A DNA stretch of 63,865 bases, counting the filler, from Licmophora abbreviata (taxonomy: Eukaryota), in NCBI GenBank assembly GCA_900291995.1. It is 22 parts of 22 records of this genome, joined end to end, with 100 filler letters (N's around TTAATTAATTAA, not from the genome) between each part and the next. Parts side by side here need not be neighbours in the genome. Positions count along the whole stretch, not along the records: positions 56,654 to 58,144 come from OLMU01006192.1; positions 58,245 to 61,298 come from OLMU01006193.1; positions 61,399 to 63,865 come from OLMU01006194.1; 19 more parts are not named here. One strand, written 5' to 3'. Positions 8,383-63,865 of the stretch are shown here, piece by piece. The position numbers and the translations under genes are program-made. Below the pieces are notes generated by a model. The model was not told where the DNA came from. It made no database searches and was given only the letters and a program-made list of their open reading frames with translations. Position 1 is the stretch's first letter, and each line of letters starts with the position of its first letter.

Positions 8383-9462
8383 ATGATGCGACGAACAGCC
8401 TCTCTCGCTTTCTTGCTTCTCATTGTTGGGGGTCCCGTGATCGATGCATTCGGCAGCTTCACTAGTGTAATCAGTCGATCCCGGTGGCTTCTGCGGATGT
8501 CGTTCGACCCTTCGNNNNNNNNNNNNNNNNNNNNNNNNNNNNNNNNNNNNNNNNNNNNTTAATTAATTAANNNNNNNNNNNNNNNNNNNNNNNNNNNNNN
8601 NNNNNNNNNNNNNNCTGATGATGCGGAGCACTCGCCTAGATGATGCTATTTTTACTAGGAGCAGTAATAGTGGTGCACAAGATCCGACAGCAGTCCGAAC
8701 GGCGTCTCTGGCACCGAGATTCTTTCGACTGCGCAATGATATTTCGAGAGTCGCTGCGGGAATGCTACTAGTCGTATCATCGCTCGTCACGCCCTTATCC
8801 TCCGCACGAGCGGATGAGTATGGCATCGAGGTCGAGGCCCCCACGCTCTTTACAGGCGAAAGTGTCATGGTACGTTCGTTGTAGTGGTGGAGAAACTGTG
8901 CAAGAAATGATACCGTACCTGGTCTCTTCGTATTACTGACAAACATTCTTCTTCTTCTATCGCCGGACAGATCTGCAAAAAGCGCGGTCCCCTCGGTGCA
9001 TGTATCGAGACTGCGGTACGAACTGAAGCAAACGACAATGATCAGGCCAAAAAGTACTTTCGGGATCCTCCTGTATCTGGAAAAGAGAGTCTCCAATCGT
9101 CGCAGAAACAACAGCAATCGGAAGCGGACGCCGGCAACGCTCTCATTGCCAAATTACGACAGCAGACCGAAGACAATCGGGAACAGAATGACTTGATTGT
9201 ACGACAAAAGACTTTATTGAATGATCAATCGGCGTCCTTTGGACCCTTTGACAAACAAGTGGTCATCTTGAATACCGATGGCAAGACCTTTACGCTGTTG
9301 CAGAATCCGCAAGCGATGCGGTTGAAACAAGCGGGATTCATCCAAGATCGCAAGTTTGTCAAACAGCCGACGAGTGCCGAACTGGAGGAGGCCATGAGTG
9401 CGGGTGAGGATGGTGGAGGCATAGGCGGTGCGATTCAAGGACTCTTTGGAGGTGGGTCCTGA
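8383..9462 (+). CDS. Uncharacterised plastid protein, probably thylakoid-lumen; spans a gap and has one intron (8870-8970)
   Basis: Signal peptide MMRRTASLAFLLLIVGGPVIDAF. After the gap, a hydrophobic stretch ends in ARA-DEYG. The spliced exon reads ICKKRGPLGACIET..NDQSASFGPF..stop at 9462. Confidence 0.7.
8515..8614. other. Artificial scaffold spacer N44-TTAATTAATTAA-N44, first of 21. The others start at 21812, 24340, 25629, 27304, 28951, 30350, 32826, 34193, 36622, 38719, 41017, 42551, 45699, 48588, 50561, 53302, 55035, 56554, 58145 and 61299.
   Basis: Identical 100-nt blocks with a six-frame stop linker. Confidence 0.97.
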
Positions 9463-16593: not shown

Positions 16594-18719
16594 ATGGATT
16601 TCCTCGTTGTCTCACTGCTGATCGGAGCGTCGCAGCTCGCTTCCGGATTTACCTCCACGTCGGAAAGAGTTTCCGTGTGTAATAGTAGAGGGATCACTGC
16701 ACCATCACGAATCTTATCCTTTTCATCAGGGACTCCTCATCCTGCGTTTCTAGCAGTGCAGAACACTCAAAGCGGACAAGCCTTGTTGTCCTCATCACAG
16801 AAGCTCAGGCTCCATCTATCCGCAGCCTCTTCTCCCAACGACGATGACGACCTTGAGGCCGTTCAATCGCTCTTTTCGAAGTACTGCGATACTGACGGAC
16901 TCATGACAAAAAAGACCTTGATGAAGATTGATACCATTGCAGACATGTTGGTAAGAATTCTTCTATTTCCTTCTGTTCCTTAATGTTTCATGACGACGAC
17001 CCAGGATGATCATACTGCTCTAGAATTACTCCGCAAAACACAGTGCAGGAAAACAATTGGTTTACTTTTGCAACATGAGGTCGTTCTTCATGCTTCACCC
17101 GAGAGGAAGGAAGGAAACTTTGAGATACTGGTGTTGTTTCTTTGACTTTTGTCTGCTCACAAACGCATCGCTCTTGTACTCTACTACTTTCAATTGCTCA
17201 CACATGCCGGTGATGACTCCAGGCCACGGAGGATTTGCTCTACGACGAATTGACCGATATTTGGAATGCAGCGCCCAAATTCCCTTCGGACAACAATCGG
17301 ATGGACGTCGATTCGTTCATTCAAGTCTTTAGAGATATCGATGACTTGTTTGAAGATGACGATGAGGGTGTAGATGATTCTACTCCTACTGTTGCTTCTG
17401 GTGATAGCAGCGAGCTAGATGATGGTTTCCGTACGCTTCCTGATGATAGAGAAGAAGAGGAACTGAAGAGCGCCTTTGCGACCTTGTGCAACAAGGATGA
17501 GCTTCTGGATAAGCAAACCTTTCGCGCGTGGACTGAAATTGGAAAACTATTAGAGGAGGGTCTCTTGGGACAAGACGAATTTGAGGAATTGTGGAGCGAT
17601 GCAACCAAGGTGGTATTGGGTGGCAGCGATGAACTTGGACTGGATCTAAAAGGGTTTCTGAGTATCAATGCGGCTTTGGACGACTTGTTCGTCTTTGACG
17701 ACGACGAAGGTGAAGACGACAGTGGGGGTGAGGGCGAAGGCGAGGGAGAGGTTGCTTATGACTCGACTCTCACTGACATGGTCGTTGTTGGTGAAGATCT
17801 GTCGCCGGTTGCATTGTTTGCTGATTTGGCCAATGAGGATAACCTCGTTGGCCGAAAAGAGCTGAACCGATGGTCCGAGCTCCAACAGATGCTGTCAGAT
17901 GAATCCCTGCTGCCACTGGAACTTCAAAATATCTTTGACGATGTAACGAAAGCGGATGGGACCGACAATATGCTAGACCAAGCTGGATTCATCGCTTTGT
18001 GGGAAGCGATCGATGCTTTGTTTGAAGACGTCGACGGCGATGACGACGAAGAAGTGCCAGGCCCGCCTCCTCAATCCAAGAACACGCAAGAGAATGAAGC
18101 CAAGAGTATCCTGCTATCGCTGCTTGACGAACTTAACAGTGATGAGGAGCGGCTACCATGCGGGTTGGAGTCAACAGAGCGCGAGGAATTGCAAGTACAA
18201 CGAATCGTATCGGCGTTGGAAGAGTCTCCGTCGAACGTTATTCAACAAACGCAGGGCAACGTGGGCTTGTCGGATCTAGAGGGAGACTGGGATCTGCTCT
18301 ACTCGAGCTCCTCGGCGATGAGGTTCAACAAGGGTTTGAGTGGGCTCGGGGGCAGCGTTCCAAACGGGAAGTTTGGTGGCCTTGTGCAGAAACTGCAGGC
18401 ATCAAAATACTTGACAGATGTTGAGTATATTGAGCGAATCGATGTGAACCCATCTTCAGGGTCGTTCGATGTTCGAGTCTCAGGTGTTTGGGATCTACGA
18501 ACAAGCGTATCCTTATTCACAGGGGCGCCTTCAACCGTTCTTACTGTGGAACCAGACCAAGTCAGGTACGGACCGACTTCGACTAAAGCGGATCATTGGA
18601 AGAGCCTTGGGCCTCTCAATATGCTGGATGTCACATACCTTGACAATGACTTGCGCGTAATGAGAGGGAACACTGCAACTGATGCTATCTTTGTCTTTCG
18701 AAGGTCGTCTTCCTCATGA
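16594..18719 (+). CDS. Plastid protein with about four acidic EF-hand-like repeats and a C-terminal PAP/fibrillin domain; intron 16951-17222
   Basis: Signal peptide with ASGF. Repeats end in IDDLFEDDD, LDDLFVFDDD and IDALFEDVD. Fibrillin motifs LEGDWDLLYSS and LDVTYLDNDLRVMRG..IFVFRR. Confidence 0.8.
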
Positions 18720-21811: not shown

Positions 21812-21911
21812 NNNNNNNNNNNNNNNNNNNNNNNNNNNNNNNNNNNNNNNNNNNNTTAATTAATTAANNNNNNNNNNNNNNNNNNNNNNNNNNNNNNNNN
21901 NNNNNNNNNNN

Positions 21912-29292: not shown

Positions 29293-30514
29293 CCTGTGGG
29301 TAATGTTGAAGACCTTTTGATGATCAGCTGAACACAGTTGTTGAATGAAAGAAACTCTAGCGGTTCAGACAGGTGCCTCCGAGCGAGTCAAAATATACTT
29401 AGTTTGAGGTTCCTTACTAGCTCATCTCTTCGCTAGTTATTGCTTGCTAGATTCGTAGCATTTCTCGCATGCATCAAGCGCCTGTAAGCCTTCTGTACCC
29501 TACTCTTCAAGATTGGTTCGATTCTTGTCAGCTTAGCTAGTTGCGCTTGCTAGCATCCTCCTTTTAATCTCCCGATTACCACATCCACTCGCAGCCCTGC
29601 GCCGCTGTGGGTTCGGGTGCAGGCGGTGGGCATACCCAAGCACCACTGCTACGAAGGATAGATTGAACCGTGAGTTGTGATTTGGATCCTTTCGATCGTG
29701 AACCGGATCGTAACAGACCCTCGATCTACCATAACGTAAGCATTCTCGGTCCCACCAGGATTATGATCTTGTACGTTGTCTATGATGGAGGCCTAAGACG
29801 GCGCAATCAGCCCGTAAAATCAGTTGCCAAGGTTAAGTACCAAGAAAAGAGCGGAACCCGTACCCAGGTAAGTATGAATATACGATTGCACTTTGATACA
29901 CCGGAACTATCTCACTTCGAAGTTGTGGTAGAGGTCAAGTGCACATCAGCCGGTCGAGCGAAGAAGCCAGTTTGAAAAAAGGTGATCAGGTGTCGCTTAT
30001 GGTTCCTTCGGAGTGTTAGAAATCCTTAAGTATTTTGAGGGACGTACATTTCGTGTAGACCTTCGTATATACGTGTTGACTACGTCATTTTTATCAGTAT
30101 TCAATCATGAAGGTACTAAAAGACCACGTGGCTTCTTGTTGAACAACGAGATCACAACCCTCTTCTAGTTACAACCCGAACAAACGAGATGACGAAGGCG
30201 GCTCCTTGGTGATGCAGTAATCTTTCCGTGCGTCTTCGATCCGTCTCAAAGCCATTCGATCATTATCGTTTCCAAACACAGCCGTAGAACACGAATTCAT
30301 CTTCAGCCCTGCGACGATGCTCGAGGTGAAACCCAACATAGGGACGAACNNNNNNNNNNNNNNNNNNNNNNNNNNNNNNNNNNNNNNNNNNNNTTAATTA
30401 ATTAANNNNNNNNNNNNNNNNNNNNNNNNNNNNNNNNNNNNNNNNNNNNCTGCTTGTTCCGCGACTCCGAATTTAGAACAGTCAACTTCGAATACTAGAA
30501 TTGAAGTCAAGGCG

Positions 30515-33500
30515 ATGGGATCGACCGGGGCATCTTGGGACGAGGCGTGGGAGTGGACTCACCGCGTAGATATGCCTGTTTTAGGGGTGACATACAGTCG
30601 AGGAAGACTTCTCATCGCTGCCTGGAATGCGAAAGCAAGTGAACTTATGGGCTACCCAGCTCACGAGGTACTGAATTCTCCATTGAATTCCATCGTGGAC
30701 GACAGTGAAAGCATCGAGAGGAGAGAGGCGCTAACACAGTCCCTGGAGAATGCCCTAGGCGGCCGGGAAGCTGCGCCTTGTACCATCCAGATCCGGGGCC
30801 AGGCTCCTTACGCCTTTCGCATCAAGCCATCGGCCCAGAGAAATAATGATGGCAAGATCATCGGGGCTGTCTGTTTTGCCGAACAAGTCCGTTTATGTCC
30901 CTCGGAGAATCAGCTGCAAAACAGAACGATCGAAGTTGCCGATGGTTCCTCGGCCGGGTGTGATGAATCACACCTGCGCTTGCTTGTAGACTCGGCGAAC
31001 GCAGCCATTGTAGGAATCGACCTCGATGGGCTCGTCACAGAGTGGAACGATGCCACGGCGGAAATCATGAGATACACAGAAGCGGAAGCGATTCGAAAGC
31101 CTTTCCTGGAATCCTTCATCGACGAGTCATCTAGAGAGAAAGTTCGGGAAGTGATTGACAATGCGCTGACGGGTCATCGCTCATCAAACGTTCAGATTGA
31201 TATACACAGTCGACACGGCGAAGAGCATCATCTCCTTGTAAATGCTTCTGCACTGGTGGAGAGCGATGAGAGCATTCAAGGTGTTGTCATAATCGCTCAG
31301 AATGTCACAGAGACTACCATGCACGATCGGGCTGTGGCCTCCATGGCGGAGGAGCTCCGGCAGCTCGTTGAGTCATCCAACGCTGCAGTCTTTGGCGTGG
31401 ACCGGGACGGCGATGTCAACGAGTGGAACGACAAGACGGCCGAGATCACTGGCTTCACCAAAGATGAAGCCTTCGACAAGCATTTTGTAAACACCTTCGT
31501 ATTTCCGTCCTTCCGCCAGTCTGTGCAAGAAGTACTGGAAAATGCGCTAAGAGGCAAGGCCACATCCAACTATGAGCTCGAGTTCAAGGCAAAGGATGGT
31601 AACGTTCATAGCCTATTGATGAATGCCTCGCCTCGAAGAGATATATACAATCATGTTGTCGGTGTTGTTGGAGTTGCTCAAGATATCACCGAGGCGAGGC
31701 AGCATGATCGAGCTGTGGAGGCCATGGCACAGGAACTCCGACAGCTTGTTCAAACGTCGAATGCTCCCATCTTTGGGATCGATGTTCATGGAAACGTGAA
31801 TGAATGGAACGATAAGATGGCGGAAATTACTGGCTTTTCTTGTGAACATGCCGTTAATGAACCTCTTGTGGAGAAATTCATTGTTCCGGGTCTAAGACGG
31901 TCGGTCCAGGGAGTGCTGGACAGCGCACTAAGCGGCAGAGGAACATCCAACTACGAGCTTGAGTTTTGTACCCAGTCCAACGACATTCGAGTATTGCTTG
32001 TGAATGCAACAACGCGTCGCGATACCGAGAGTAACATCATCGGTGTTGTTGGTGTTGCTCAGGACATTACCGAAGCTGTTCAGAGAGATCGTGCGGTGGC
32101 TGGAATGGCGAACGAGCTGCGTCAACTGATCGACTCAGCGAATGCACCGATCTTTGGTATCGACTGCGATGGAAATATCAATGAATGGAACAACAAAACG
32201 GCCCAAATCACAGGTTTCTCCAAGGAGGAAGCGTTTGACGAGCCGCTCGTAACAAGATTCATCGCAAAGTCTCATCAGAAATCAGTGCAGGAGGTGATGG
32301 ACCAAGCCTTACTTGGGAAAGAGACCTCCAACTACGAAGTCGAGTTCATGACCAAGTCGAGTGAAACAACAAGATTCTTGCTGGTCAATGCTACCACTCG
32401 GCGTGATCCAGAGAATAATGTTGTCGGCGGTAAGTTTGCATGAGTCACTACTTGTGGGTCGTCCTTCACTTGTATCGGTATGCTCAACGAGCTCCGCCCC
32501 GATTGTTCTTCATCAGTTGTTGGAGTTGCCCAGGATGTCACGGATGACAGAAAACATGCTCAGGAACTTCGAGACATGCAATACTGCCGAGCATCGCAAG
32601 AGGCAAAGGTTGAGACGGAACGGAACATGACCGCTTACTTCGCTCACGAACTCCGCAATCCGCTCGGTGCTATTGATAGCGCGCTGAGCGCCATGCCGGA
32701 TGCTCTACCCAAGCCGGTCCAAGATCTCGTCAGTGCCATGCAGCTATGCACGGGGTTCATGTCGTCTATCATGAACAATCTGCTCGACGTAAGAAAGATG
32801 GAGGAAGGGAAGATGACTCTTCATTNNNNNNNNNNNNNNNNNNNNNNNNNNNNNNNNNNNNNNNNNNNNTTAATTAATTAANNNNNNNNNNNNNNNNNNN
32901 NNNNNNNNNNNNNNNNNNNNNNNNNAAGTTTATGAAACGAGTGAATACAAGAGGCAAAGACTGGGTCCTGGGCGACGCACATCGAATTCAACAGGTCATG
33001 ACTAATGTTGTTACAAACGCCATCAAGTACACCCTATCGGGAAGCATTACTCTGATTATTGAATGGGATGGTGATAGCGTTCGTTTTGAGTGTGCCGACA
33101 CTGGCCCTGGAATCCCCAAGAGCGAGCAAAAGAAACTGTTTGAACGCTTCGTTCAACGAGGTGGTGCGCCGGGAACTGGACTAGGCTTGGCGATCGCGAA
33201 ACATCTCGTCGATTTGACTGGGGGAACGATTTGTTTCATTAGCGATCCCAGTGTGAAGGCAGGCACGTCATGCGTTGTTACGATGCCACTGCCCACATGT
33301 GACCCTCCCGAGGGCACAGCGAAGAGTGAAGAAGAGATGCAGATGATTGAGGAGCCACTCAATATTCTCATCGTTGATGACGTCAAGATGAACCGTATGC
33401 TGCTCAAGCGACGTTTTTTGAAGAGTATTGCGCCGAACTCGACCATTACGGAAGCGTCAACCGGCGAAGAATCGCTCAAGGTTTGCGGTCAAGAGAAGTT

Positions 33501-33744
33501 TGACTTGATTGTCGTTGATCAGTACATGGAAGAGGCGGGTGGAGTCATGGTAGGGACTGACGTCGTGTTTGCTATGAGGAGAATGCGGATTCAGTCTGTC
33601 ATTATTGGTTGTTCAGGGAACGACATGGATGACCAGTTCTACGAGGCTGGGGCCGACATGGTTTGGAAAAAGCCGTTGCCTTCCAACCAGGAAATTATTG
33701 AGCACCTGAACTCTTCCCTCGCCAAGAGACGACGATTAGCGTAA
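30515..33744 (+). CDS. Soluble hybrid sensor histidine kinase: 5 PAS, HisKA, HATPase, receiver; intron 32430-32516; spans a gap
   Basis: PAS repeats (ANAPIFGID.DGNINEWN). H-box FAHELRNPL, N-box NVVTNAIKYT, G1 DTGPGI, G2 GTGLGLAI. REC domain ILIVDD..IVVDQYM..KKP. Confidence 0.93.
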
Positions 33745-34847: not shown

Positions 34848-35092
34848 ATTGGTTGGAGCTCGAGGCATGTTGGCGGCCTAGCATGAATACACTTTCAACT
34901 TCTGTTAACACACAATTAGCTATAAGTAATGCCGAGAGCCCCGGGGCCAGAGAGCGAGGTCTGAGTCGGTTCGAGGTCAGTTACGTTTGAAACGAACGTA
35001 GGACCCGGACTTTGAAGTTTGCGCTCGACACGTGACAAGAACGTCACTCTCATTACGAGTAGATTATTTTTTTGGTCTCTCTCGGCACCACG

Positions 35093-36202
35093 ATGGCGAA
35101 AGTAAATGAGCTCACCGCCGCTTGCTCGATCATTTTGCTCGCTTGGGCTTTTCTCACTGTCACCTGCTTCACTGTGGAGCGGCCTGTGGCGTCGCGAGGG
35201 GTCTCTGTATCGAAACTTGCCCTTCAAAATGATGACTTTGAAATAGATTCCTTAAAACGACGCGAGGCGGTCATTGGATCGCTAACGACAGCTGCGACAC
35301 TCTGGACGACTCCCTTCTTAGCAGTTGCTGAGGAGCAGCCCTGCTTAGACTGTCTTCTGGACCTGCCGACTCCCACCGACGATCATGTTCGAATATTTTT
35401 GACGCGCCATGGTCAAACCGAAAATAATCGGTTGCGACTGGTCCAGGGAGCCCGAGTCGACCCTCCAATTAACGAGAATGGAATTGCAATGGCCAATAGA
35501 ATAGGCATAGCATTTTCTAGACTCCAGGATGAATGCCCTAACATCTTTTTCCACTCGCGCCTCTTACGTGCTCAGCAGACGGCCCAGGTTGCTTCGTCGG
35601 GGACAAAGCGAAATGTTGACATAAAACCTCTAGATGCCTTGGCTGAAGTTGACTTTGGTCCGCTCGCAGAAGGAAAGCAGGTTTCAGAAGTGCGTACTGA
35701 AATGATGCGTACGTATGGGGCATGGGCTGCAGGGTTTATTGATACGAGGCCCGACGGTGGCGGTGAAAGCGGAAGAGAGGTGAGTTGCTTAGCTAGTCTA
35801 GTCACAATATTGCAGTCGGACAGAGACTCCACTGACATGTCTTCGTGTCTATACGAATAGGTTTTGACTCGCGCATCGACAGCATTGCGATCCTTGGTAG
35901 ACGAAGCAAATGCCAATGGTGGCTCGGTGGTTGCTGTGACGCACTCTACTTATCTGCGCACATTACTCGCTACGATGCTTGACTTGCCTCTTGCACAGGC
36001 CGCTACATTAGAGCAAAAGAACGGATGTATCAATGTATTAGATCTGAAGCGCGATGGTTCTTTTAGGACCATTGGGCCGAAGAGCAAGCTCCTGGGAGGA
36101 GTTCTGTCGGCAGCTCCGAGCTCATTTTCCCTGGAGATTCCGAGAGGAAAGGTCGTGCGAATCAACGAAAAGCGGCATCTGGAGGGTATTCCACTGTCTT
36201 AG
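35093..36202 (+). CDS. Histidine phosphatase / phosphoglycerate mutase family protein, plastid-targeted; intron 35780-35860
   Basis: RHGQT, RAQQTA, LAEVDFG, GGESG and VAVTHS motifs. The N-terminus has a signal peptide followed by RR, a hydrophobic stretch and AVA. Confidence 0.88.
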
Positions 36203-50866: not shown

Positions 50867-52258
50867 AGAACAAGTGAGTGTTGTTGTGGAATGCGTCGTA
50901 TGATACCAGGCACAGTGTTCTTACTGTCCTACAGTATGCATCATTACACATATCTACATAACACGGGCGACGATAGGGTGCCGTGCTCATAGGAATGCTG
51001 ACGAATCTTGGCGTGATTCGGGATGCATCACGCGTGGTAGTCACGAGTTTCGAGTTGCGTGATGGCTGGGACCACGTGCCAGACGCCGCCCACGGTGAGA
51101 TGGACGCCGTCGGAGACGCTGCAAGGAGCGGGGTCAAGAACCTCATCACGACTTGTGGACTCTCAACTTGAATGGTATATCACTCTGGTACGACTTTCTT
51201 GTATCGTTGCTATGATTTACTATGCTATTGGGAGAGTAGTACCTGTAGTCTCTCATTCTTGGATTCCTAGCCAGTTGCGGGCTATTAACTTGCGGCTCCC
51301 TGCCTCTTGGGCTCTTCCATGTGTCACGTCGTTGCACCGTCCCTATCCTTTATTAATAATAATGATGATTCATGACCTGCTTGTGTGTGCGGTCGCAAGT
51401 CGTGCGGTGTCGTCGGCGACGAGGCGGCGCCGTCGACGATTCCGTCTGCTCTGCCGGTTCGTCATGCAGCAGCAGACAGCGGGCCGTTCCAGTAATACCA
51501 GGAATGAAATAGGAAGAGGAGACGCGGTTGCTGTTGGCACTCCCATGACGAGACTCGAATCTAGTTTCTGGCATGATAGTATCACCATGCTGGGTAGCGA
51601 GAGACCGCTTGGAGGAGGATGATACTGTGGTGAGGATGCTCCGCGACGAGGAAGAAGCAGTCGATCCGAGGGTTCTCAGGGACGCGCCTTTCTGTTTCAT
51701 TCGAAGTAACCCTGGAAGTCCTGAATCCGACACTAGAGGAAGCGATCCTTCTAGACTTCTCCTGGAGCCGCTGCGCTCGTTGCGTTGACTGAGATTCATC
51801 GTGAAGGGAGAGAGCAGTTGATGATGCCGACACGAAGAAGAAAAAAGTGGGAAGTTTTTATCACGATAGATTGGAGAGGTGAAGCGTCAAGACAAGGAAT
51901 GAAGATGCGGCATAATTGTGTGACATTCTGCGAGGCTTACCAGCTTAATCAAATGGGTCACAATGTAGTCTTGGGCCTTTTTACTTTATATAGCTTTATG
52001 CCAAAATGACTGGACTTTCTGGTCGTGACATCGAGCTCTCTGCAGCTCAGAAATGAGATGAAAAGCTCACACCTCACACCTCGCCCTCAAACCTCAAATC
52101 TCAAATCTCATCTCAGCACACTCACTCTCGACTTTGACCATGACGTTTCGAATGCTTGCCGCCGCCGTTTCTCTCTCTCCACGAATCTAGCCATTTTTGA
52201 ACTCTTTTGGATCTCTTTATGATATAGCTCTCAGAAATTAAAAGAGAGACGTCTGTCG

Positions 52259-54147
52259 ATGTCCAAAAACGAAGGAAATCGCCTACTATCCATTGACCGT
52301 CAATTTTGGCTAGTTTTGTTCATCACCGCGATGATGAGCCTGGTGTCGTGCCATGAAACAGCTGGGTGGTCCGCTCTTAGGAGGTCAAGCGCCTTTTTGC
52401 TTACAAATAGAGCTCCAAACCGAAAACACCCGGTGAGGAGAAGATCTCAAGCTTTCTCGTTCTGTCGAAATGTCCATCCAGTCCGTTTTGTTGCTGCTGC
52501 TCATAGCATTGGGTCGATACAGAGTCGAGGGCAACGCCAATCTTGCTTCTTCTCGACGGAATCTTCCATCTCTTCTTCTTTGTCAAGCTACTCCTATGAA
52601 GAATTCTCGCAGCTGGCAGCCGAAATTCGCAGACACGACGCTGTCTACTACAATGATATAGATTCTATTAAACTATCCGACGACGAGTTTGATGCTTTGG
52701 TGGAACTAGAGGGACAGCTGTGCGTACAGTATCCCGACTTTCTGAAGCGACTTGAGGATGAAAGTGGGTTGGGGTCCATGGCGACTCGCTATGGAGGACG
52801 GGTGGGGTCATCGCATATTGCGGTTGAAGAATCGTCTGATGAAACTACGGTTGCAAAGACATCAGTGCCGTCAACGATGCTCCTAGGCGACAAGCTGTCT
52901 CACATCGCACCGATGCTGTCATTGGACAACGTTCACAATACAGAACAGCTTCATCAGTGGGTACAAAGAATGCAAAGACGTCTTTTGAAGAGTGATGAAT
53001 CATTTATGAATAGTACCACGTCGATTGAACTTGTGACGGAACCCAAACTGGACGGCTTGTCCCTGTCTCTTCGATACGAGCGGGTGGGTGATGACCGCAC
53101 TGCCTATACGCATCAATGGGCGGCGACGCGCGGAGATGGTCGAGAGGGGCAGAATGTCACGATAGCTGCCTTGCAAGCGCTCGACCTGCCCATTCATCTG
53201 AATTGGGACTCACCCAATGCACCCGCACTGCTGGAAGTCCGCGGCGAAGTCGTGCTGCCGCTGTCCAAATTCAATGACCTGTCCTCCAACTTTTCGAATG
53301 CNNNNNNNNNNNNNNNNNNNNNNNNNNNNNNNNNNNNNNNNNNNNTTAATTAATTAANNNNNNNNNNNNNNNNNNNNNNNNNNNNNNNNNNNNNNNNNNN
53401 NTGTTCCTCCTCGTCCCTCGAGACGACTCAAACGTCACTCCGCAGGCCTTGCGTGAACAGATTGCAGAGTTGCCTGGGTGGGGACCCAAATCTGCTCAGA
53501 ATCTTGCCAGTAGTGCAGAACGAATCGCAAAGAGTGGAGTTTCCCTTGGCCGATTCATCTTTTCGTTAAACATCCGTCATGTCGGGCAATTCTCTTCCAA
53601 CCTGATTGCATCAAGCTATGGGTCAGCTGAAGCCTTCTTAGAAGCTGTCGAGGATGCATCTCAGATGAAGGGGTCAGAAGAACAAGCGCAGGCATTCTCA
53701 TTACTTGCAGGCAATGCTGAGACCGAAGGAACGAAGGGGGTTGGCCCAGTGCTCCTCTCTTCGCTCGTTACATTCTCCAAGCAATCTGAGCTCGTTGAGG
53801 CTGCGAAGGAGTTAGCTAGAGTGGCTTTGGTGCATGAGGCGCAACGACCGCGAGACACGCCGTCGACCTCGACAGAGGCGGACGACAAGTTGCCTTGGAA
53901 AGGATTGACGATCGTCTTTACTGGAGCGATGCCTGATATGCCGCGACAAATGGCCCAGGACCTTGCTCGCGAAATGGGGGCTAAAGGGACTCCAGGTACG
54001 GTCAGCAAGTCAACGGACATTGTTGTCGCCGGTGATAAAGGAGGGAAAAAGCTCGAGCAAGCCAAAAAGCTAGGACTCCGCATAATGGAGACAGAGGAAT
54101 TCCTCAACCTTGTAAAGCAGTTTCGAGAAGGCGAGAGCGGCAATTGA
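52259..54147 (+). CDS. ligA: NAD+-dependent DNA ligase with an organelle-targeting N-terminal extension; central part in the gap
   Basis: Domain Ia IRRHDAVYY..SDDEFDAL, HIAPMLSLDN, EPKLDGLS (KxDG), TRGDG and EVRGEV. HhH LPGWGPKSAQNL and LNIRHVG. BRCT VFTG..VSKSTDIVVAG..GKKLEQAKKLG. Confidence 0.93.
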
Positions 54148-55134: not shown

Positions 55135-56553
55135 CTTACACATGACCGCGCCCCGGCCCAACGACAACGCACCCCCTGTGTGGCTGCGCATGTCGAAATG
55201 CACGGCATACGCCGCGTCCACCCAGGTTCGCAACACTCCGAGGTCATCAGCCCCAATGATACGCACATCGTCAATCGTTCCCTTCACATATTGCAAGACC
55301 CGCTTCAGTTTCGACCAATCCTGTGTCGTACTGCATGACACCCGCGTGGTGAGGAACGCCACTGCTGTAAGCAAATCGGGGCGCCCTCGCTGTGAGACAT
55401 AAAGTAACTTCGCCACCACACTATGAAAAACTTCCGCATCCTTCTGACCAAGTGGGGCGGCGCTCTTGTCAACCGCGAATAGTCCCTTGGCTCCTGGTGT
55501 GGTTGCAGTCCGAGCGACCGGCTCCCCAAAATCGTGTAGCGCTTCCACCAAGTACTCCTGCATGCCAATTGTAACAGTCCGATCGTCGTTGAACGTGATA
55601 TCCATCCCTAGGAACGTGTGCTTTCGTCCTCTGGTCACCGACATTTTCCCAAATTTGCACTCGATTGCGTCTATAATCTCTGTCACCACGTCCGGATCCA
55701 CGTGTGAAATCTTGTTGTCGTCAACGAACCAGCCGACGGTACACTGCTTTCCGTTGATGTCACAGTTTGCCACGCACGGGTCGTAAGGGTTCAGCACAAA
55801 CCCTCGCTCCTTTAGAGTGCTGGAGAACAACTCATACCATAGTAGTGCGGATTTCACACATCCGTACAGTGCCTTCAGCAGTTGTACATACAGCGTGTTC
55901 CTCCCATTCTCAACTGTGACGAATTCCTTGTACTTGGGGTCAACCGACTGCAGTATGTCTACTGCCTCCCCTGTCAACTTCAACACGACGAAATCGTCCA
56001 TATCTGCGTGCAGGTACGCTCCTTCAACGTCAGCAGTTGCCACGTCTCTACCTTCGTGTGCATCGATCATCAAGGACAACATGAGGGCGTCGTTCGAGAT
56101 GGTGGGGGATGTTGTCTCTGCGCGCGCGTAGAGTGCCTTCTGCGGTCGACCATCTGCACACGTCCTCCCTTTCAAGGTCCCATTCCTCTTTTCCTTGATC
56201 AGATTAATTGCTCGTAGCGCCTTGGTTCGCTCCTCCCTACTCAGGCTCCCCGCTGAGACTGGCTTGAAAACTCCTTTGTCGTTCAATTGGGCGAACTCCT
56301 TGAACATCGCGTCGATGGCTGCCTGCCCATGTTTCCGGATCCCTGCTGTCGCGGTCATCTGCGTCATCATGTGCCCACACACATAACGATGTACTGCTTC
56401 ACTGTCCTCATCAAGGTCATTGAAGGCTTCCTGCAACAACTGTACCCCGGTATCGTAACTGTGCCGGTCGTTCGATGCATCCATTTGATTCGCAAGACGG
56501 TGGTTGTAGTTTCGCTCCCTGTTTGGCCGCAGATTGTATCGACCCACTTCCGG
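55135..56553 (-). mobile_element. Ty1/copia (CoDi-like) LTR retrotransposon pol fragment: reverse transcriptase and start of RNase H
   Basis: KGRTCADG, DVEGAYL, LKALYG.VKSALLWY, FVDD, RPDL and WVDAAYAVH..RSHTG. The ORF is uninterrupted across the whole contig. Confidence 0.95.
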
Positions 56554-56994
56554 NNNNNNNNNNNNNNNNNNNNNNNNNNNNNNNNNNNNNNNNNNNNTTA
56601 ATTAATTAANNNNNNNNNNNNNNNNNNNNNNNNNNNNNNNNNNNNNNNNNNNNAGATATATGCAAATATTTAATCCTTGTGAAATATACGACTGATTCGA
56701 CTAATTCATTCTTCACAGTACTCGTACTTGATGGCGTATCATAGTCCTTGCGCGGCTGTTGATTGAACTTCAAAGTCCTCACCACCACTTCAAGATTGTA
56801 TTTTTGTAAGTTCAAAATCTCGTAGATTTCTACACTGACTGTACTACAGAACAGTTGAACCTCTCTTCAACTTCCTCTCACATTTTGCTGTCCTTATCAC
56901 AAGACAGCATTCACAATCGAAGCGCAGTGCCCTATTCGCACCAAAACAGCCTGTGACGACCCGTGAGTTGCCCGCATCCGCACTCTCTTTCAAC

Positions 56995-57870
56995 ATGATT
57001 CGCCTTTTCCAGACTGCACTCCTGCTCTCCTCGACATGCCCTAGTTATCTTACGTTTGGGTTCACGCCACCGCTGTCTCCTCTCGCGACGACCTTTACTC
57101 ATTCCCAGCGTCTGTCGGGAAAGGTGGGAGCTGCTGTATCGACTTCGACCACAGACTTGACTACGGACTATGTCCTCACAGCCAGTACTGTCGAACCAGA
57201 AAACCTAAATGCGGTTTCCATGCCGTCGCCCTATCGCTCTGCTTCCATCGCTTGGGCCGAGTTGAGGAGGAGCGAGATTCAGGAGCATCACGCGAGAAGT
57301 AGTACTTTCACAAGTAGTGAGAAGGCGGTGGCTGGACCTTTGACTCTTGAAGAAGAAGTGCCTCCCACAGTGTCCAAGGCCCAGCCTCGCGGCTTGGCAT
57401 ATTCGAAAGCCACCGTGCAATCAACGAGTGCGCCGTTCTTGTCGACCGATTCCATTGAGGAATCGGAGCAAGAGACAACAACAGAGCAAGGCCCCGAGCT
57501 TCGCGGACTGACCTATTCAAACCTCAGGCTAGCCTTGTTGGAGAAGAAACGAGGCATCGTCCCCCGTGGGCTAGCTTACTCCAAGGCGAGACTTGCCATG
57601 GTACAGAAGGGTTTGGCATGGAACGGAAGCACATTCCCTTCGCCGCCTCCCGCCGAAGACATCCTAGAGGAGGATGCTTCTGTGCCTGAAGCACGGGGCT
57701 TATCCTATTCAAACGCTCGATCTTCCGTTTCAAACCAGGATCAGATTGATACGATGGCGAGTGCTACCGTGGCGTCATCTCCCTCAATGGGTCAGGAGGA
57801 GGACCAAGCGACTTCTCAGCACGAAGAAGTCGAGAGCTTGATGCAAGTATACACCCGTGGCTACTATTAG
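56995..57870 (+). CDS. RGLxYS-repeat protein, copy A (plastid-type presequence, 4 motifs)
   Basis: N-terminus MIRLFQTALLLSSTCPSYLTFGFTPP. Motifs at 57388, 57502, 57565 and 57694. Confidence 0.75.
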   Translation: MIRLFQTALLLSSTCPSYLTFGFTPPLSPLATTFTHSQRLSGKVGAAVSTSTTDLTTDYVLTASTVEPENLNAVSMPSPYRSASIAWAELRRSEIQEHHARSSTFTSSEKAVAGPLTLEEEVPPTVSKAQPRGLAYSKATVQSTSAPFLSTDSIEESEQETTTEQGPELRGLTYSNLRLALLEKKRGIVPRGLAYSKARLAMVQKGLAWNGSTFPSPPPAEDILEEDASVPEARGLSYSNARSSVSNQDQIDTMASATVASSPSMGQEEDQATSQHEEVESLMQVYTRGYY

Positions 57871-57958
57871 GCTGACTGTCTGTACCGGTACACATCCCAG
57901 CAGAGAGAAGAAGTGCCACAGTACGTACCGGTAGGTTGCCCGGACATCAGGTACCGGT

Positions 57959-58431
57959 ACGTACGTGGGTAGCTAGGGTAACGGAGGAAGATTGACTCGC
58001 ACAGAGGTAATGCTAGCGTTGCGACTGTACATTCAGACAAGTCACACTCGTAGCCGTATCCATGGATTCATCAGCCGCTCCCGTCCTAGTAGCAGACTTG
58101 ATTCGTAGCCATGAACGTTCAATGTTGGACCAATTATCATTTTANNNNNNNNNNNNNNNNNNNNNNNNNNNNNNNNNNNNNNNNNNNNTTAATTAATTAA
58201 NNNNNNNNNNNNNNNNNNNNNNNNNNNNNNNNNNNNNNNNNNNNACGTACGTGGGTAGCTAGGGTAACGGAGGAAGATTGACTCGCACAGAGGTAATGCT
58301 AGCGTTGCGACTGTACATTCAGACAAGTCACACTCGTAGCCGTATCCATGGATTCATCAGCCGCTCCCGTCCTAGTAACAGACTTGATTCGTAGCCTTGA
58401 ACGTTCAATGTTGGACCAATTATCATTCTAT
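57959..58431. repeat. About 186-nt near-identical duplication flanking a gap (57959-58144 vs 58245-58430)
   Basis: Direct comparison shows about three substitutions. Confidence 0.88.
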
Positions 58432-58573
58432 AATCATGCTGTTGTACCAGCTTGCAGACCCTACACAACACATCGATCTAGGCATTGCCGTCCGCCGTCC
58501 GCGACATCATTCCCACCGGAGTTGAAGTTCAAAAGTGCCTCCGTAGCATTCTACGTATTGTCGGTACGTACTG

Positions 58574-58833
58574 GTACTGTGCTGACAGTCTTCAAGTTGA
58601 ACAACCGAAAACAATTCTGATGAGTTTCTAATTTGAAACTGCCTCCATCGTGGTCACTTGAGCTCATTCCTTTCTCATAGACATATCACAGTACTATGCT
58701 GCTGACAGTCTTCAAGTTGAAGCTCACACGTCGCACAACCGAAAACAATTCTCATTGAGTTTCAAATTGCCTTCGTCACTCTGCGTTCTTCGTCTTCGTC
58801 TTCGTTGAGATTCATTCCTTTCTCATAGACATA
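58574..58833 (+). repeat. Imperfect tandem duplication (two units of about 110-140 nt) immediately upstream of copy B
   Basis: gctgacagtcttcaagttgaa, acaaccgaaaacaattct and tcattcctttctcatagacata each occur twice, in the same order. Confidence 0.85.
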
Positions 58834-58859
58834 CAAGAATTGCGGTTGTACCAGGCAAA

Positions 58860-59933
58860 ATGCGTCTCTTTCAGGTTGCTGTGTTGCTTTCGGTGTGGCA
58901 TCGGCTGGTGGCGACGGCGTTCACTGTGACTCCCGAAGTCTCCTCGTTTCAAAGAAGGAAAACAAGAGGAACTCGGGTCGCGAGTTCTGCTTCTGACTCG
59001 TTCAACGGCTACGGCACAGTGAGTGTGGCACCGGACTCCAAGTATCCCGGAGGCAGCACTCCTCTCTATCCTGTGGTGCCACAGGCAAGAAGTGGCACGA
59101 CAGAAGGTGGTTCCTGGTATGGCGGTGCAGAGGTGCGAGAAATGTGCGAGATGCGCTTTGCTCCTCCTCCGATCCATGAGACTACGACAAGTAGTAGCAC
59201 GATGCCCCCATCTTCGTTCATGAATGAGGTGGAAACGGATCCCATGCATGCTGTTTCAACTACTTCTCTCGCGCGCACCGTTGAGTCTACTACTGCTCCC
59301 GTGCCCGCCCTTGCAACTTCCACTCCTCCCGTGCCCGCCGTACCTACTACTAAGCCTGTGGCAGAAGAGTTTGAGAAACCGGTACAGGCGGAGTCAGTCA
59401 CCCCCGTAGCACGGAAAATGACGCCAAAGGCAGACCACCTGATGCCTCGTGGCCTTGCATACTCGAAAGCCAACTTGCCAGCAAATAGTGCGACTTCTCC
59501 TCTTATCGAGAAACCGCTTCCCGTGGTGGCTACAGGGGAAGCACTAAAGATGGACAAGAATCTTTCGCGGGGTCTGGCCTATTCGAAGATCAGGATGGCT
59601 CTCTTGAAAAAGAAAAGAGCCCCCATTGCTGCATCCATCCCCCGCGGCCTGAAGTACTCCATGACCAGGCTTGCCATGATGAAGAAGAGTCAGGTAAAAA
59701 ACGGAAATCCTATTTCTTCTGCTTCCAATCCCGTCGACGATACAATGGAGGAGCCTCTTGAGACGGAAGCCGAGGAAGAAGCAATCCCGTTTCCTCGGGG
59801 CTTGTCCTATTCGAAGTTTAGGTCAAGCTTGTTCAAGAATGACAGCGCGAACAATCGCTCTACTAGTGGTACCCAGACCTATGACAAGGGTGCAGTATCA
59901 TATGAGTCCATGGGGAGTTTGATTGGCGCTTAA
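58860..59933 (+). CDS. RGLxYS-repeat protein, copy B (signal peptide ending ATAF, 4 motifs)
   Basis: N-terminus MRLFQVAVLLSVWHRLVATAFTV. Motifs at 59448, 59568, 59643 and 59796. Confidence 0.8.
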   Translation: MRLFQVAVLLSVWHRLVATAFTVTPEVSSFQRRKTRGTRVASSASDSFNGYGTVSVAPDSKYPGGSTPLYPVVPQARSGTTEGGSWYGGAEVREMCEMRFAPPPIHETTTSSSTMPPSSFMNEVETDPMHAVSTTSLARTVESTTAPVPALATSTPPVPAVPTTKPVAEEFEKPVQAESVTPVARKMTPKADHLMPRGLAYSKANLPANSATSPLIEKPLPVVATGEALKMDKNLSRGLAYSKIRMALLKKKRAPIAASIPRGLKYSMTRLAMMKKSQVKNGNPISSASNPVDDTMEEPLETEAEEEAIPFPRGLSYSKFRSSLFKNDSANNRSTSGTQTYDKGAVSYESMGSLIGA

Positions 59934-60772
59934 CGGAGTGAGTCACTGGGAGATACAACTGCAATTGTCCTGTGACTGCTGTCCGCCTCAGTTTGTAAAG
60001 CAAATCGTGGTCTGATGTGTGGTAGAGAGGCTGACAATGCAAGATAAGTTTGACATTTTGATATCTGAAAAGTAAAACGATAAATATAAGATAGATATGT
60101 CTGTACATTTGAACAACGCTACTACCGTTGTCTACTACAAGAGATCGACATACATACTTTTCGTCTGAAGCTAAAGAGCACACTACAATGCCTTGTGTGC
60201 TTCACCTGACAACTGGATAGCAAAATGTACCCAACGGATCGATTCTCAAACAAAGAACAAGCTTTGAAGCAAGCTTCTACCGGTACAGCCGCCACCCGAA
60301 ACCATCACGGGTTTCGACGGTACAACTGTCGTACGGCTGTACCGGTACCCATCCGCGATGCTCGGAGTCATAAGAAAGATGGCCGTTTGTCCAGAACAGA
60401 AAGAACGTGAGAAAGAAAACGGCGAACGTCGCCAGATTCGCTCGTTCCTATCATCCGTTGATCAACGGCAACGACCCATAGTATGCCCACGGCTATCGTA
60501 CGCTTATTGATTGCTCCATCGAATAAGTATCACAGAAAGCCGTTGCCTTCGCGAGCTGGCGACCGCGTCGCCCATTATCAGCGAACAACAAGAAGCAAGA
60601 AGCACCAACAGTCGTCCATCGCTTGGTGCTTCGTTCTCGGCCTCGCCAAATACGGCTTCTACCTATGAGTCCACCTCACAAAAATGCACACCTTCTTGCA
60701 AACGAACCAATCCTCGCCTCCCTTCGTTGAAGTACAACAACGAGACTAGCAACAAGAGCAACAGCCACCACC

Positions 60773-61298
60773 ATGCGTTCTATTCTCCTCTTTTGGTCGG
60801 GAATTGTCTTCTTTCAACTCCTCCTCAACGACTTTCAGGGTTCTGTTGCGTTTGCAGCCAAGCACAACTTTGACCTACGCGAGGAGCTGGACGGCACTCC
60901 ACAAACAACGAAAGAAGATGAAAACTACTGGTCGCGATTTCTTCAAGGTGCAGACCAAATGAGTGTACCGGTACGTGAGCCGTGACCAGCAGCCATGAAA
61001 AGTGAACGGTTTGTCTACAATCATGCTAGTGGCACTGCTACCATCGCTTTATTGCAACAATAGCCAGCCTCCTGAGCGACGACAACTCTCATCGTCCCGC
61101 AACTCACGCGCCCATCCTTTGCCATTCCCTTTCTTCGCAGACGATTCCTCCAACGCCAGGACCTACCCTTCAACCGATAGCTCCTCCGACCATTGACACA
61201 ACGCCTCCTGCGCCGACTCCGCCCCCAACGGGCGTACTAGATCTGTGTGAAGGGGTCACTTGTCCAGCAGGTCAAAGCTGCAATCCTTCTGACGGCAC
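60773..61298 (+). CDS. Secreted protein, 5' part: RFLQ site, Pro/Thr-rich linker, Cys-rich repeat; intron 60971-61140
   Basis: Signal peptide, then YWSRFLQ. The spliced exon reads TIPPTPGPTLQPIAPPT..DLCEGVTCPAGQSCNPSDG. Confidence 0.7.
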
Positions 61299-61398
61299 NN
61301 NNNNNNNNNNNNNNNNNNNNNNNNNNNNNNNNNNNNNNNNNNTTAATTAATTAANNNNNNNNNNNNNNNNNNNNNNNNNNNNNNNNNNNNNNNNNNNN

Positions 61399-61668
61399 GT
61401 TGGAAAAGAAACGAGTCTCCGTTCTCCGTGGTCTGACCTACTCCAAAGCCAGACTTGCCATGATCAAGGAAAATTTGGCACTAGATTCCGTCGAAGACTC
61501 AAAGGAGGAGGTACCTCTTGAGACAGAAGACGAGGAAGAAGCAATCCCGTCTCCTCGGGGCTTGTCCTATTCGAAGTTTAGATCAAGCTTGGCCAAGAAT
61601 GGCTCTAACACCCGTACGATAAGGATGCAGTATCGTATGAGCCCATGGGGAGTTTGATTGGCGCTTAG
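61399..61668 (+). CDS. RGLxYS-repeat protein, copy C (3' fragment; last codons frame-shifted relative to copy B)
   Basis: LRGLTYSKARLAM and SPRGLSYSKFRSSL. The coding end and 3' flank align with 59620-60160. Confidence 0.7.
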
Positions 61669-62401: not shown

Positions 62402-63865
62402 ATGTTGTTAAAGGGGACTTACCTAGCCTTTTTGGCGCTGCTGGGCAGTCCCGTTGTCTCTCTCGATGCAACGACGAAGAGTAGTTTGTCATCGGTCAAT
62501 TTGACAAGCCTGATTCAGCCCACTGGATGGTCCGGTACTTCCAAGTGCGAGAAGGACAACATGCTACCTATCACTATCACTACATCTCTCCTTCTTGAGT
62601 TTGTAGGCTTCGAAGGGCTCGTGATTCCTGCCGAAGTGAACGTCCTTGAACGTCAATTCGCCGAAACCTACGAAAAACTCACGAGCGACATGTGCGACTC
62701 AGGAACCTCTTTCACGATTGAGCAAGTCATCTTCTTGACTGGCGATAGCGATGAAGCCTTACAAGATCGCCGCTCCCTCACTGGGACTGGTGGTCTATCA
62801 TCATTCATCTATCCTGCTCGAGTTCAAGGCAGGTGCATCGGAAACGACTGTCCGGCCGTAAACATGCTCTTCCGTTCCAACACTGGAAACTCGAGGTCTC
62901 TCATGGAGGCTAGCTCGACGACGATGCAGTCTCACGTGATGGAGGGCTCTGACAGCATTGTCAAGGAGTCAACGACGGCAAAAGTCATGGACATTGACTC
63001 TGTCGACAGTGCAATTCGCGACCTGACGGGCTGCGGAATGTGTCAGGCTCCGACCGAACACCAATTCGTCCAGGCCTACAAAATCGACATTCGAGATCTC
63101 TACGACCAGAATGTGATTGGCAATGTTCAGGGTTTTAACAGCCTCATTTCTTTGACAGAAATAGAGTGTAGTGAAGAGGAGTCGGAGTTCGAAGACTTCC
63201 TTGACATCGACTACTTCGGTGACCCGGATCTGCTCACTCCCGGCGAGCTCGAGTCCTTGGCCATCCAGATCGTCGAAGATTACAACGTCTTAGCTCTCAA
63301 CCTCTGTGACCCATTCTTTCGTCGACTCGTGGCTGCAGACGTAACAGATCTTGTTGATGACGGCGACAGAAGGAGTCTTCGACAAAGCCGAAACTTGCAG
63401 AGGCGCTTCAGGCGCCGTTTCCGCCTACGAGGCCGCTGCCGTGGTTGTAGGAGGAGGAGATCTCGCGCATTTGACAACGCGGTACGACGTCTGGGTACTC
63501 CGACTGCAGACACATCTTCTTACCTTCACCGATCCCTCCAGGAGATTCCTGAAGCATTTATATGCGTGTGCGATCCAGCCCTCGCCAACGATCCCGCTGC
63601 ACAGAGAGCACCCTCGCTGGGTGACTTCACCGAAAAGTACACAGCAAGTGTAGAGGGACTTGACCTTGACGGCGTTGACACAGTGCTTGAAGTCGGGGAA
63701 GTTGCGGTGGAGGAATTTCCACCTACCATAGCTCCAAGCACAGCTGTCCCCACTCCCATGCCCACCTTAAGACCTACGCCACAGCCCACTCCCGAGCCAA
63801 CGCCTGAGCCAAGCCTCGAGCCAAGCGTCGATCCAACGCCTGCTCCAACGCCTGAGCCTAGCCTC
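62402..63865 (+). CDS. Large secreted protein (absent from the ORF track, runs off the window): two Cys-containing repeats with RxL sites, an Arg-rich segment and a PT/PS mucin-like tail
   Basis: Manual translation is open from ATG 62402 to the window end: MLLKGTYLAFLALLGSPVVS..MCDS..GRCIGNDC..APTEHQF..Y / LCDPFFR..GRCRGC..CVC..RAPSLGDF..Y / PTPQPTPEPTPEPS. Confidence 0.85.
   Translation, partial: MLLKGTYLAFLALLGSPVVSLDATTKSSLSSVNLTSLIQPTGWSGTSKCEKDNMLPITITTSLLLEFVGFEGLVIPAEVNVLERQFAETYEKLTSDMCDSGTSFTIEQVIFLTGDSDEALQDRRSLTGTGGLSSFIYPARVQGRCIGNDCPAVNMLFRSNTGNSRSLMEASSTTMQSHVMEGSDSIVKESTTAKVMDIDSVDSAIRDLTGCGMCQAPTEHQFVQAYKIDIRDLYDQNVIGNVQGFNSLISLTEIECSEEESEFEDFLDIDYFGDPDLLTPGELESLAIQIVEDYNVLALNLCDPFFRRLVAADVTDLVDDGDRRSLRQSRNLQRRFRRRFRLRGRCRGCRRRRSRAFDNAVRRLGTPTADTSSYLHRSLQEIPEAFICVCDPALANDPAAQRAPSLGDFTEKYTASVEGLDLDGVDTVLEVGEVAVEEFPPTIAPSTAVPTPMPTLRPTPQPTPEPTPEPSLEPSVDPTPAPTPEPSL

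Follow-up and report, generated by a model that had tools for sequence, protein, structure and literature searches.

Within a 63,865-nucleotide (nt) window of the genome of the diatom Licmophora abbreviata (GenBank assembly GCA_900291995.1), two intact genes, here called A and B, and a partial third copy, C, share the peptide motif RGLxYS(K/N)xR. A and B are real coding genes, and the motif is under purifying selection. We consider it somewhat probable that they represent an orphan, lineage-restricted diatom family of stromal, disordered, multi-motif binders, consisting of two intact neighbors and one truncated, frameshifted copy. If a stromal disordered protein does carry a fourfold docking motif, this would point to a new interaction module of secondary plastids even if Rubisco is not its partner. 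The three copies and the motifs of A and B are located as follows (motif coordinates cover the RGLxYS core).

56995 to 57870, plus strand: gene A, a single-exon open reading frame (ORF) of 291 amino acids (aa) plus stop, filling most of its contig (56654-58144)
57388 to 57405, plus strand: A motif 1, PRGLAYSKA
57502 to 57519, plus strand: A motif 2, LRGLTYSNLR, at predicted helix 173-184
57565 to 57582, plus strand: A motif 3, PRGLAYSKAR, at predicted helix 191-210
57694 to 57711, plus strand: A motif 4, ARGLSYSNAR, with an acidic tract just before it (net charge -6 over 20 aa)
58860 to 59933, plus strand: gene B, a single-exon ORF of 357 aa plus stop (contig 58245-61298)
59448 to 59465, plus strand: B motif 1, PRGLAYSKA, with a Lys-to-Asn metagenome variant
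59568 to 59585, plus strand: B motif 2, SRGLAYSKIR, within predicted helix 233-257
59643 to 59660, plus strand: B motif 3, PRGLKYSMTR, at the start of predicted helix 263-280
59796 to 59813, plus strand: B motif 4, PRGLSYSKFR, with an acidic tract just before it (net charge -9 over 20 aa)
61400 to 61657, plus strand: copy C, an 85-codon 3' piece that forms the first 258 nt of its contig (61399-63865)

In a six-frame translation of the whole window, the string RGL.YS was retrieved 10 times, compared with 0.12 occurrences expected from composition. All 10 matches lie in the three copies, with four in A, four in B, and two in C (61427-61444 and 61556-61573). The motifs begin at residues 132, 170, 191, and 234 of A (spacings of 38, 21, and 43 residues) and at residues 197, 237, 262, and 313 of B (spacings of 40, 25, and 51 residues). 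The motif strings and spacings listed in the original prediction, which was made from the sequence alone, are thus exact. When the 10 motif copies are compared with one another (45 pairs), the residues at the five fixed positions, R, G, L, Y, and S, never change. The corresponding 225 codon comparisons comprise 72 identical codons, 153 synonymous differences, and 0 replacements. Because the codons differ this often while the residues never do, the peptide motif must be under purifying selection, and the comparison is direct evidence that the conserved unit is the motif peptide and not the DNA. The same codon analysis ruled out chance ORFs. Over the whole alignment, the ratio of nonsynonymous to synonymous substitution rates (dN/dS) was 0.35 to 0.42, at saturated or high dS. 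Protein alignment and a DNA-level repeat search showed the spacers to be unrelated in sequence and unequal in length, and neither method found any repeat other than the motif itself. Selection on the motif while the spacers drift, as originally proposed, is therefore borne out.

Environmental sequences also bear on gene B, which is matched by marine metagenome contigs at 95 to 100% identity. Variants of the ORF among these contigs carry two in-frame indels (6 and 3 nt) and seven substitutions (three synonymous and four nonsynonymous). One of these, an A-to-C change at position 59468 (codon 203), replaces the motif 1 Lys with Asn, an exchange that is also seen between the paralogs (K/N). Just upstream of the B start codon (58580-58833, plus strand), two exact 22-nt blocks each occur twice (58580/58700 and 58664/58812), while another block is repeated at 86% identity (58593/58727). 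This region is a tandem duplication of ~120 to 150 nt in the presumed promoter or 5' untranslated region.

The start of A is the first ATG in a stop-to-stop frame spanning 56839-57870, and the resulting N terminus is homologous to that of B. The two proteins are 34% identical over 177 aa (E value of 1e-20), with similarity restricted to the final ~170 residues and the first 11. B and C are more alike (57% protein identity over 82 aa, E value of 6e-22; 74% DNA identity), and the DNA match between them continues past the stop codon into the 3' flank. Relative to B, copy C has in-frame length differences of 12, 27, 3, and 3 nt plus one 22-nt deletion, which shifts the frame right before a conserved tail that is ~94% identical at the DNA level. 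The three copies appear to be old paralogs; alleles or haplotigs as their source were ruled out by the B-C DNA identity of 74% and the A-B protein identity of 34%. The original prediction had described three same-strand paralogs. This description stands for A and B, which are intact, but C is an 85-codon 3' piece that is truncated at a contig edge and frameshifted relative to B; it is either damaged or misassembled.

The N termini of both proteins resemble plastid presequences of the diatom type. According to the published description of ASAFind (Gruber et al. 2015; PMC4329603), such presequences are SignalP positive, carry F, W, Y, or L at position +1 of the cleavage site, and score above 2 on a matrix covering the next 20 residues. 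We applied the published matrix (supplementary file 8 of PMC4329603; cutoff of 2) by itself.

56995 to 57060, plus strand: signal-peptide-like segment of A, residues 1-22, proposed cleavage TFG/F after G22 (N terminus MIRLFQTALLLSSTCPSYLTFG, followed by F)
58860 to 58919, plus strand: signal-peptide-like segment of B, residues 1-20, proposed cleavage ATA/F after A20 (N terminus MRLFQVAVLLSVWHRLVATA, followed by F)

The best cleavage sites scored 6.36 in A and 7.67 in B, with transit-peptide scores of 5.57 and 4.66, respectively, and in both proteins Phe occupies position +1 of the best-scoring site. These are the sites at which a signal peptide followed by a plastid-type Phe had been proposed. 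The 25 residues that follow contain 7 S/T, 2 K/R, and 0 D/E in A and 9 S/T, 5 K/R, and 1 D/E in B, where the stretch is S/T/R rich. The most hydrophobic 9-mer spans residues 4-12 in each protein (Kyte-Doolittle means of 1.64 for A and 2.28 for B). AlphaFold2 (AF2) predicted an N-terminal helix at residues 3-11 of A and at residues 2-21 of B, the latter with block values of 86 and 77 for the predicted local distance difference test (pLDDT); confidence is high in B only. Both paralogs retain the dipeptide F-T behind the cleavage site, although their presequences have otherwise diverged. Judging from these features, we would put plastid import of A and B at roughly two chances in three. Elsewhere in the window, a histidine-phosphatase-family ORF (35063-35857, plus strand) has an N terminus in the same style as that of B (...LLAWA/FLTVTC/FTVERP...), which is likely a plastid presequence.

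The mature chains are predicted to be largely disordered. As a proxy for disorder, in place of a dedicated predictor, we used AF2 pLDDT values obtained with a three-sequence alignment. Mean pLDDT was 48.4 for B and 47.1 for A, and values below 50 were assigned to 238/357 residues of B and 186/291 residues of A. Both proteins are also rich in S, T, P, and E (39.9% of the residues of A and 37.3% of those of B); on disorder and composition alike, the initial description of the family holds. Besides the signal peptide, the sole predicted elements are two helices in each protein (173-184 and 191-210 in A; 233-257 and 263-280 in B). They match the positions of motifs 2 and 3 and are predicted at low confidence (pLDDT of 55 to 62). 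Motifs 1 and 4 are nonhelical. Net charge at motifs 2 and 3 of A and B is +4 to +7 over 20 residues (+2 at the motif 3 copy of C), while the 20 residues before motif 4 carry a net charge of -6 to -9 in A, B, and C. For the motif helices, the Eisenberg hydrophobic moment is 0.06 to 0.34, which does not exceed the values in the rest of the proteins. Of the amphipathic basic helices first suggested at motifs 2 and 3, the basic character is thus confirmed, the helical state is predicted at low confidence, and the amphipathic character is not supported. Overall, mature A is acidic (isoelectric point [pI] of 4.7 to 5.0; net charge of -11 to -13), and B is mildly basic (pI of 8.8 to 9.5). A two-copy complex prediction for B residues 189-335, run without controls, gave no answer (score of 0.00), which speaks neither for nor against self-association.

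Under the interpretation that we favor, the products would enter the endoplasmic reticulum via the signal peptide and then most likely pass on into the plastid stroma. Onward passage is likely because the cleavage site is followed by Phe and a transit-peptide-like stretch. The conserved part would be a C-terminal module of ~140 aa in which four copies of (P)RGLxYS(K/N/M)x(R) occur in fixed order within a largely disordered mature chain. Motifs 2 and 3 would lead two adjacent basic helices separated by a short Pro-containing turn, and motif 4 would follow the acidic tract. A six-residue core that occurs four times without change, while the disordered sequence around it drifts, points to a short linear docking motif used multivalently. 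Each motif may therefore serve as a docking peptide for the same partner site, and one molecule would contact an oligomeric stromal partner at several sites, or bind several molecules of the partner, acting as a multivalent adaptor or scaffold. Plastid location, docking function, and multivalency are features that we infer from the sequence; Rubisco is one candidate partner among several.

Several observations weigh against this interpretation. Among the sequencing runs listed as containing the sequence, none is on record as RNA, and the single run guessed to be RNA contributed three small contigs covering 59117-59399 only, which speaks neither for nor against transcription. No search retrieved a relative of A, B, or C from another organism; the conservation evidence consequently comes from three paralogs of one genome. 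An ASAFind score obtained without SignalP is weak evidence because Phe alone contributes 3.25 points, so that unrelated ORFs in the window exceed the cutoff of 2 at a chance Phe. With this contribution subtracted, the transit-peptide scores are 2.32 for A and 1.41 for B, still higher than the 0.96 to 1.09 at the best site of the other three signal-peptide-like N termini in which Phe follows a small residue (gene D, described below, and the HisPhos and Malectin ORFs). Two ORFs with a chance Phe and no signal-peptide-like N terminus (ABC1 and orf47366) retain 1.94 and 1.66, however, which makes the comparison of remainders weak. Residues ~140 to 170 of B are rich in Pro, Thr, and Ala, a composition that would also suit a secreted protein. 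Finally, the four motifs may differ as sites because only two of the four are predicted to be helical.

The claim that the motif fits no described family withstood every search made. A Pfam scan of the family, considering E values up to 1 and including dehydrin/LEA, found no family above the gathering score; the single match listed had an E value of 0.28 (11.7 bits, compared with a cutoff of 27). Two word-index searches in 5.8 billion clusters yielded 8,000 candidates for B among proteins of 196 to 625 aa and 10 candidates for B residues 185-340 among proteins of 30 to 195 aa, with no match in either case. A profile of the conserved module run against 1,835,955,588 representatives retrieved no protein at an E value of ≤0.001, and two scans of metagenome contigs gave 89 and 161 pattern matches but no confirmed relative. 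The best ESM Atlas score for whole B was 0.75, and the module had no usable match there. The best E value in a PDB profile search was 0.55, and the motif strings were absent from the 8.4 million full texts searched.

Diatom genomes commonly encode disordered proteins that are orphans, and the present family is an orphan in the data searched. Relatives of such a fast-evolving disordered protein could lie out of reach, given how distant the nearest sampled diatom is. A fibrillin-like ORF in the window (17217-18716) retrieved 415 relatives, the named ones being diatoms (Odontella, Cylindrotheca, Seminavis, Bacillariaceae, and Helicotheca). Because its best match is only 63% identical and none of the entries listed comes from the genome studied here, the host appears to be a diatom with no close relative among those sequenced and annotated. 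Its assembly is fragmentary. Fast-evolving disordered proteins defined by short motifs are invisible to homology searches; a family recognized from raw sequence, with a motif under measurable selection, is thus a concrete candidate for peptide tests.

Gene order in this region has to be read through the assembly. The window consists of 22 contigs in a chain. Between them stand 21 linkers, 100-nt blocks that each contain one copy of TTAATTAATTAA (44 N, TTAATTAATTAA, and 44 N; 8515-8614, 21812-21911, and so on to 61299-61398) and serve as six-frame stop linkers. A, B, and C occupy one contig each, three contigs in all. In four pairs of neighboring contigs, the ends overlap but were left unmerged (48 nt at 100%, 41 nt at 100%, 222 nt at 91%, and 186 nt at 98.4% identity). 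Because these overlaps join neighboring contig ends, several of the gaps are failed merges, probably caused by heterozygosity. The order of the contigs is meaningful, as indicated by the four end overlaps and by a DNA ligase gene that runs across one junction. That gene encodes an NAD-dependent (bacterial LigA-type) ligase with adenylation, HhH, and BRCT domains, split over two contigs (52223-53299 and 53404-54144, plus strand); the N terminus carries a long extension, which suggests targeting of the enzyme to an organelle. Features around the three copies are as follows.

55135 to 56553, minus strand: Copia-type reverse transcriptase fragment (RVT_2, E value of 4.1e-16), on the contig directly upstream of A and cut at both contig ends
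57959 to 58144: 3' end of the A contig, repeated at the 5' end of the B contig, 58245-58430 (98.4% over 186 nt)
58145 to 58244: assembly linker between the A and B contigs (44 N, TTAATTAATTAA, 44 N)
60773 to 61298, plus strand: gene D, between B and C, with its ATG at 60773 and a 170-nt GT-AG intron (60971-61140), running into the gap
61299 to 61398: assembly linker or gap between the B and C contigs, which would contain the 5' half of C, if any
62402 to 63865, plus strand: gene E, open at the window end, with a signal peptide, two RRSL sites, and a PTPEP-type tail

The contigs of A and B are those that share the 186-nt overlap, and the two genes are therefore true neighbors on the same strand, ~0.7 kb apart. 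The position of C next to B follows from scaffold order only, and gene D lies in between. The tandem arrangement that had been proposed thus holds for A and B. The signal peptide of gene D ends in SVA/FAA (ASAFind transit score of 4.34) and is followed by an acidic stretch; after the intron, the gene encodes a Pro/Thr-rich part and CEGVTCPAGQSCNPSDG. Gene E carries an Arg/Cys-rich cluster (RRFRRRFRLRGRCRGCRRRRSR) and matches no Pfam family; in appearance, its product is a diatom protein that is secreted or located at the cell surface. Farther away, a hybrid sensor kinase (30452-32440 and 32926-33741, plus strand) contains approximately five PAS domains, with the HATPase and receiver domains on the next contig.

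Given the signal peptide, the S/T/P-rich composition, and neighbors D and E that look secreted, A and B could instead be pro-proteins of the secretory pathway (of the frustule, the silica deposition vesicle, or the extracellular space) that are cut at four RGL sites and carry a fortuitous Phe. Many biosilica-associated proteins of diatoms are described as typically being cut at RXL, and their RXL domain directly follows the signal peptide and is removed (PMC5525289 and PMC9650480). RGL fits this pattern, and every RxL tripeptide of A (four), B (four), and C (two) is an RGL. Conservation, however, reaches the Y, S, K/N, and R beyond RxL, none of which a bare cleavage site needs, and the first RGL occurs at residue 132 of A or 197 of B, not directly behind the signal peptide. 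Silaffin pentalysine clusters, as described in the same two sources, place 5 Lys within 12 to 14 residues, whereas lysine content is low here (2.7% in A and 5.9% in B) and no 14-aa window contains 5 Lys (maximum of 3 in A and C and 4 in B). The Phe at +1 and the acid-poor, S/T-rich, positive character of the next 25 residues are moreover kept in both paralogs. We consider the secretory explanation unlikely. A quite improbable alternative is that A and B are plastid proteins whose module folds conditionally into a helix-turn-helix that self-associates or acts on a membrane or nucleic acid, comparable to stress-protective or membrane-shaping disordered proteins, with motifs 1 and 4 as degenerate duplicates. 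Two adjacent helices are indeed predicted in both paralogs, hydrophobic residues lie on more than one helix face (hence the low moment), as would suit helix packing rather than lying on a surface, and the strongly basic helix ends (KKKR and KK) could bind acidic lipids or RNA. These helices are predicted only at the low pLDDT noted above, and the Pfam scan gave no support from dehydrin/LEA or any other family. Motifs 1 and 4 are nonhelical yet as strictly conserved as motifs 2 and 3, which argues for a sequence-specific peptide role. That the ORFs are silent or decaying orphans without function is very improbable. The runs listed offer no RNA evidence, the searches made found no homolog, C is truncated and frameshifted, and a Copia-type fragment lies directly upstream of A. 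Against this, A and B are long and intact, the fixed motif positions combine 0 residue changes with 153 synonymous differences, dN/dS is 0.35 to 0.42 at saturated or high dS, and the environmental variants of the B ORF have in-frame indels only.

A more specific proposal, in line with the candidate linker system of the original prediction, is that A and B are Rubisco linkers or organizers of the pyrenoid matrix. RGLxYS(K/N)xR would then be a sticker of a new kind that binds form ID Rubisco, and a chain with four such stickers would cross-link the holoenzymes, giving rise to a condensate. How Rubisco is packed into the pyrenoid of most diatoms is an open question. Known linkers are reported to share architecture, not sequence (PMC13655443), and the FLIPPer criteria, as published, are a largely disordered chain, repeating structured elements, and a spacing of 20 to 120 residues (PMC11570498). 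A and B are largely disordered with motif spacings of 21 to 51 residues, in agreement with two of these three points; on the third, agreement is at most partial, with only motifs 2 and 3 predicted as helices, at a pLDDT of 55 to 62. The plastid-type presequences, the basic pI of B, and the pairing of Arg with an aromatic residue within the short conserved motif, a trait that other stickers show too, also fit. An as yet unrecognized linker in another diatom would be expected, since known linkers lack homology across lineages and PYCO1 is reported to be absent from centric diatoms; in the Thalassiosira pseudonana pyrenoid proteome, as summarized in a bioRxiv preprint, a repeat linker was not found and PYCO1 is described as not widely conserved. 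Opposing the proposal, mature A is acidic, while PYCO1 and EPYC1 are both described as positively charged (PMC10288592). Tandem repeats are absent from A and B, in which the spacers are unrelated and unequal. Motifs 2 and 3 lie just 21 to 25 residues apart in mostly helical sequence, a distance that is short for bridging two holoenzymes. None of the patterns KWSP, GTGYNP, EWxSMN, and W[RK]xx[LIVA], the last being the Rubisco-binding motif of Chlamydomonas, occurs in A, B, or C. As a weak point, the upstream regions of A, B, and D lack TGACG[TC], an element linked to the CO2 response that occurs at a window-wide rate of 1.11 per kb. On balance, we regard the linker proposal as unlikely. There is likewise only a slim chance that the motif is a sticker not seen before, with red-type (form ID) Rubisco or another pyrenoid component as its target, in a lineage lacking PYCO1, with basic B and acidic A setting the valency and charge balance of the condensate. 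If true, the sticker reading would constitute a third, independently evolved linker solution within diatoms.

Compared with known systems, the family of multi-motif binders that we favor resembles several without matching any. Diatom plastid proteins of the ASAFAP type share with A and B an N-terminal hydrophobic helix, a small residue at -1, Phe at +1, and a following stretch of 20 residues that is S/T rich, acid poor, and positive, with a score over the cutoff; this likeness defines a targeting class only and is silent on the function of A and B. The RXL biosilica proteins (silaffins, cingulins, and Silicanin-1), as characterized in the sources cited above, have in common with A and B a signal peptide, S-rich low complexity, and RxL. 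Their RXL domain, however, sits behind the signal peptide, whereas the RGL of A and B lies far downstream inside a longer motif, and A and B differ further in lacking lysine clusters and in having a plastid-type presequence. The EPYC1/CsLinker class likewise consists of a disordered chain with short elements, some of them helical, 20 to 120 residues apart. Green-algal linkers are described as having five to six equivalent helical stickers in near-identical repeats (PMC13655443), in contrast to the two of four predicted helical motifs and the lack of surrounding repeats in A and B. Their Rubisco type also differs from the form ID enzyme of the host, and W[RK]xx[LIVA] is absent from A, B, and C.

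The closest parallel in overall design is PYCO1 of Phaeodactylum tricornutum (Phatr3_J49957), which is likewise plastid targeted and mostly disordered, with repeated motifs that combine Arg/Lys and an aromatic residue, and which is confined to a narrow lineage. There is no sequence similarity between PYCO1 and A or B (0 profile matches in 1.84 billion representatives), and its stickers (KWSPRGGS, GTGYNP, and AAEWGSMNQ) are absent from A, B, and C. As reported for PYCO1 (PMC10288592), KWSPR/Q is the small-subunit sticker and GTGYNP the self-association motif, and the protein contains six ~80-aa tandem repeats and KWSPRGGS/GTGYNP stickers, with a pI of 10.03. A and B instead have four motifs, unrelated spacers of 21 to 51 aa, and one acidic paralog. 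Binding of PYCO1 to Rubisco is shown by structure in the same report, whereas the motif of A and B is a putative docking peptide for a partner in the stroma.

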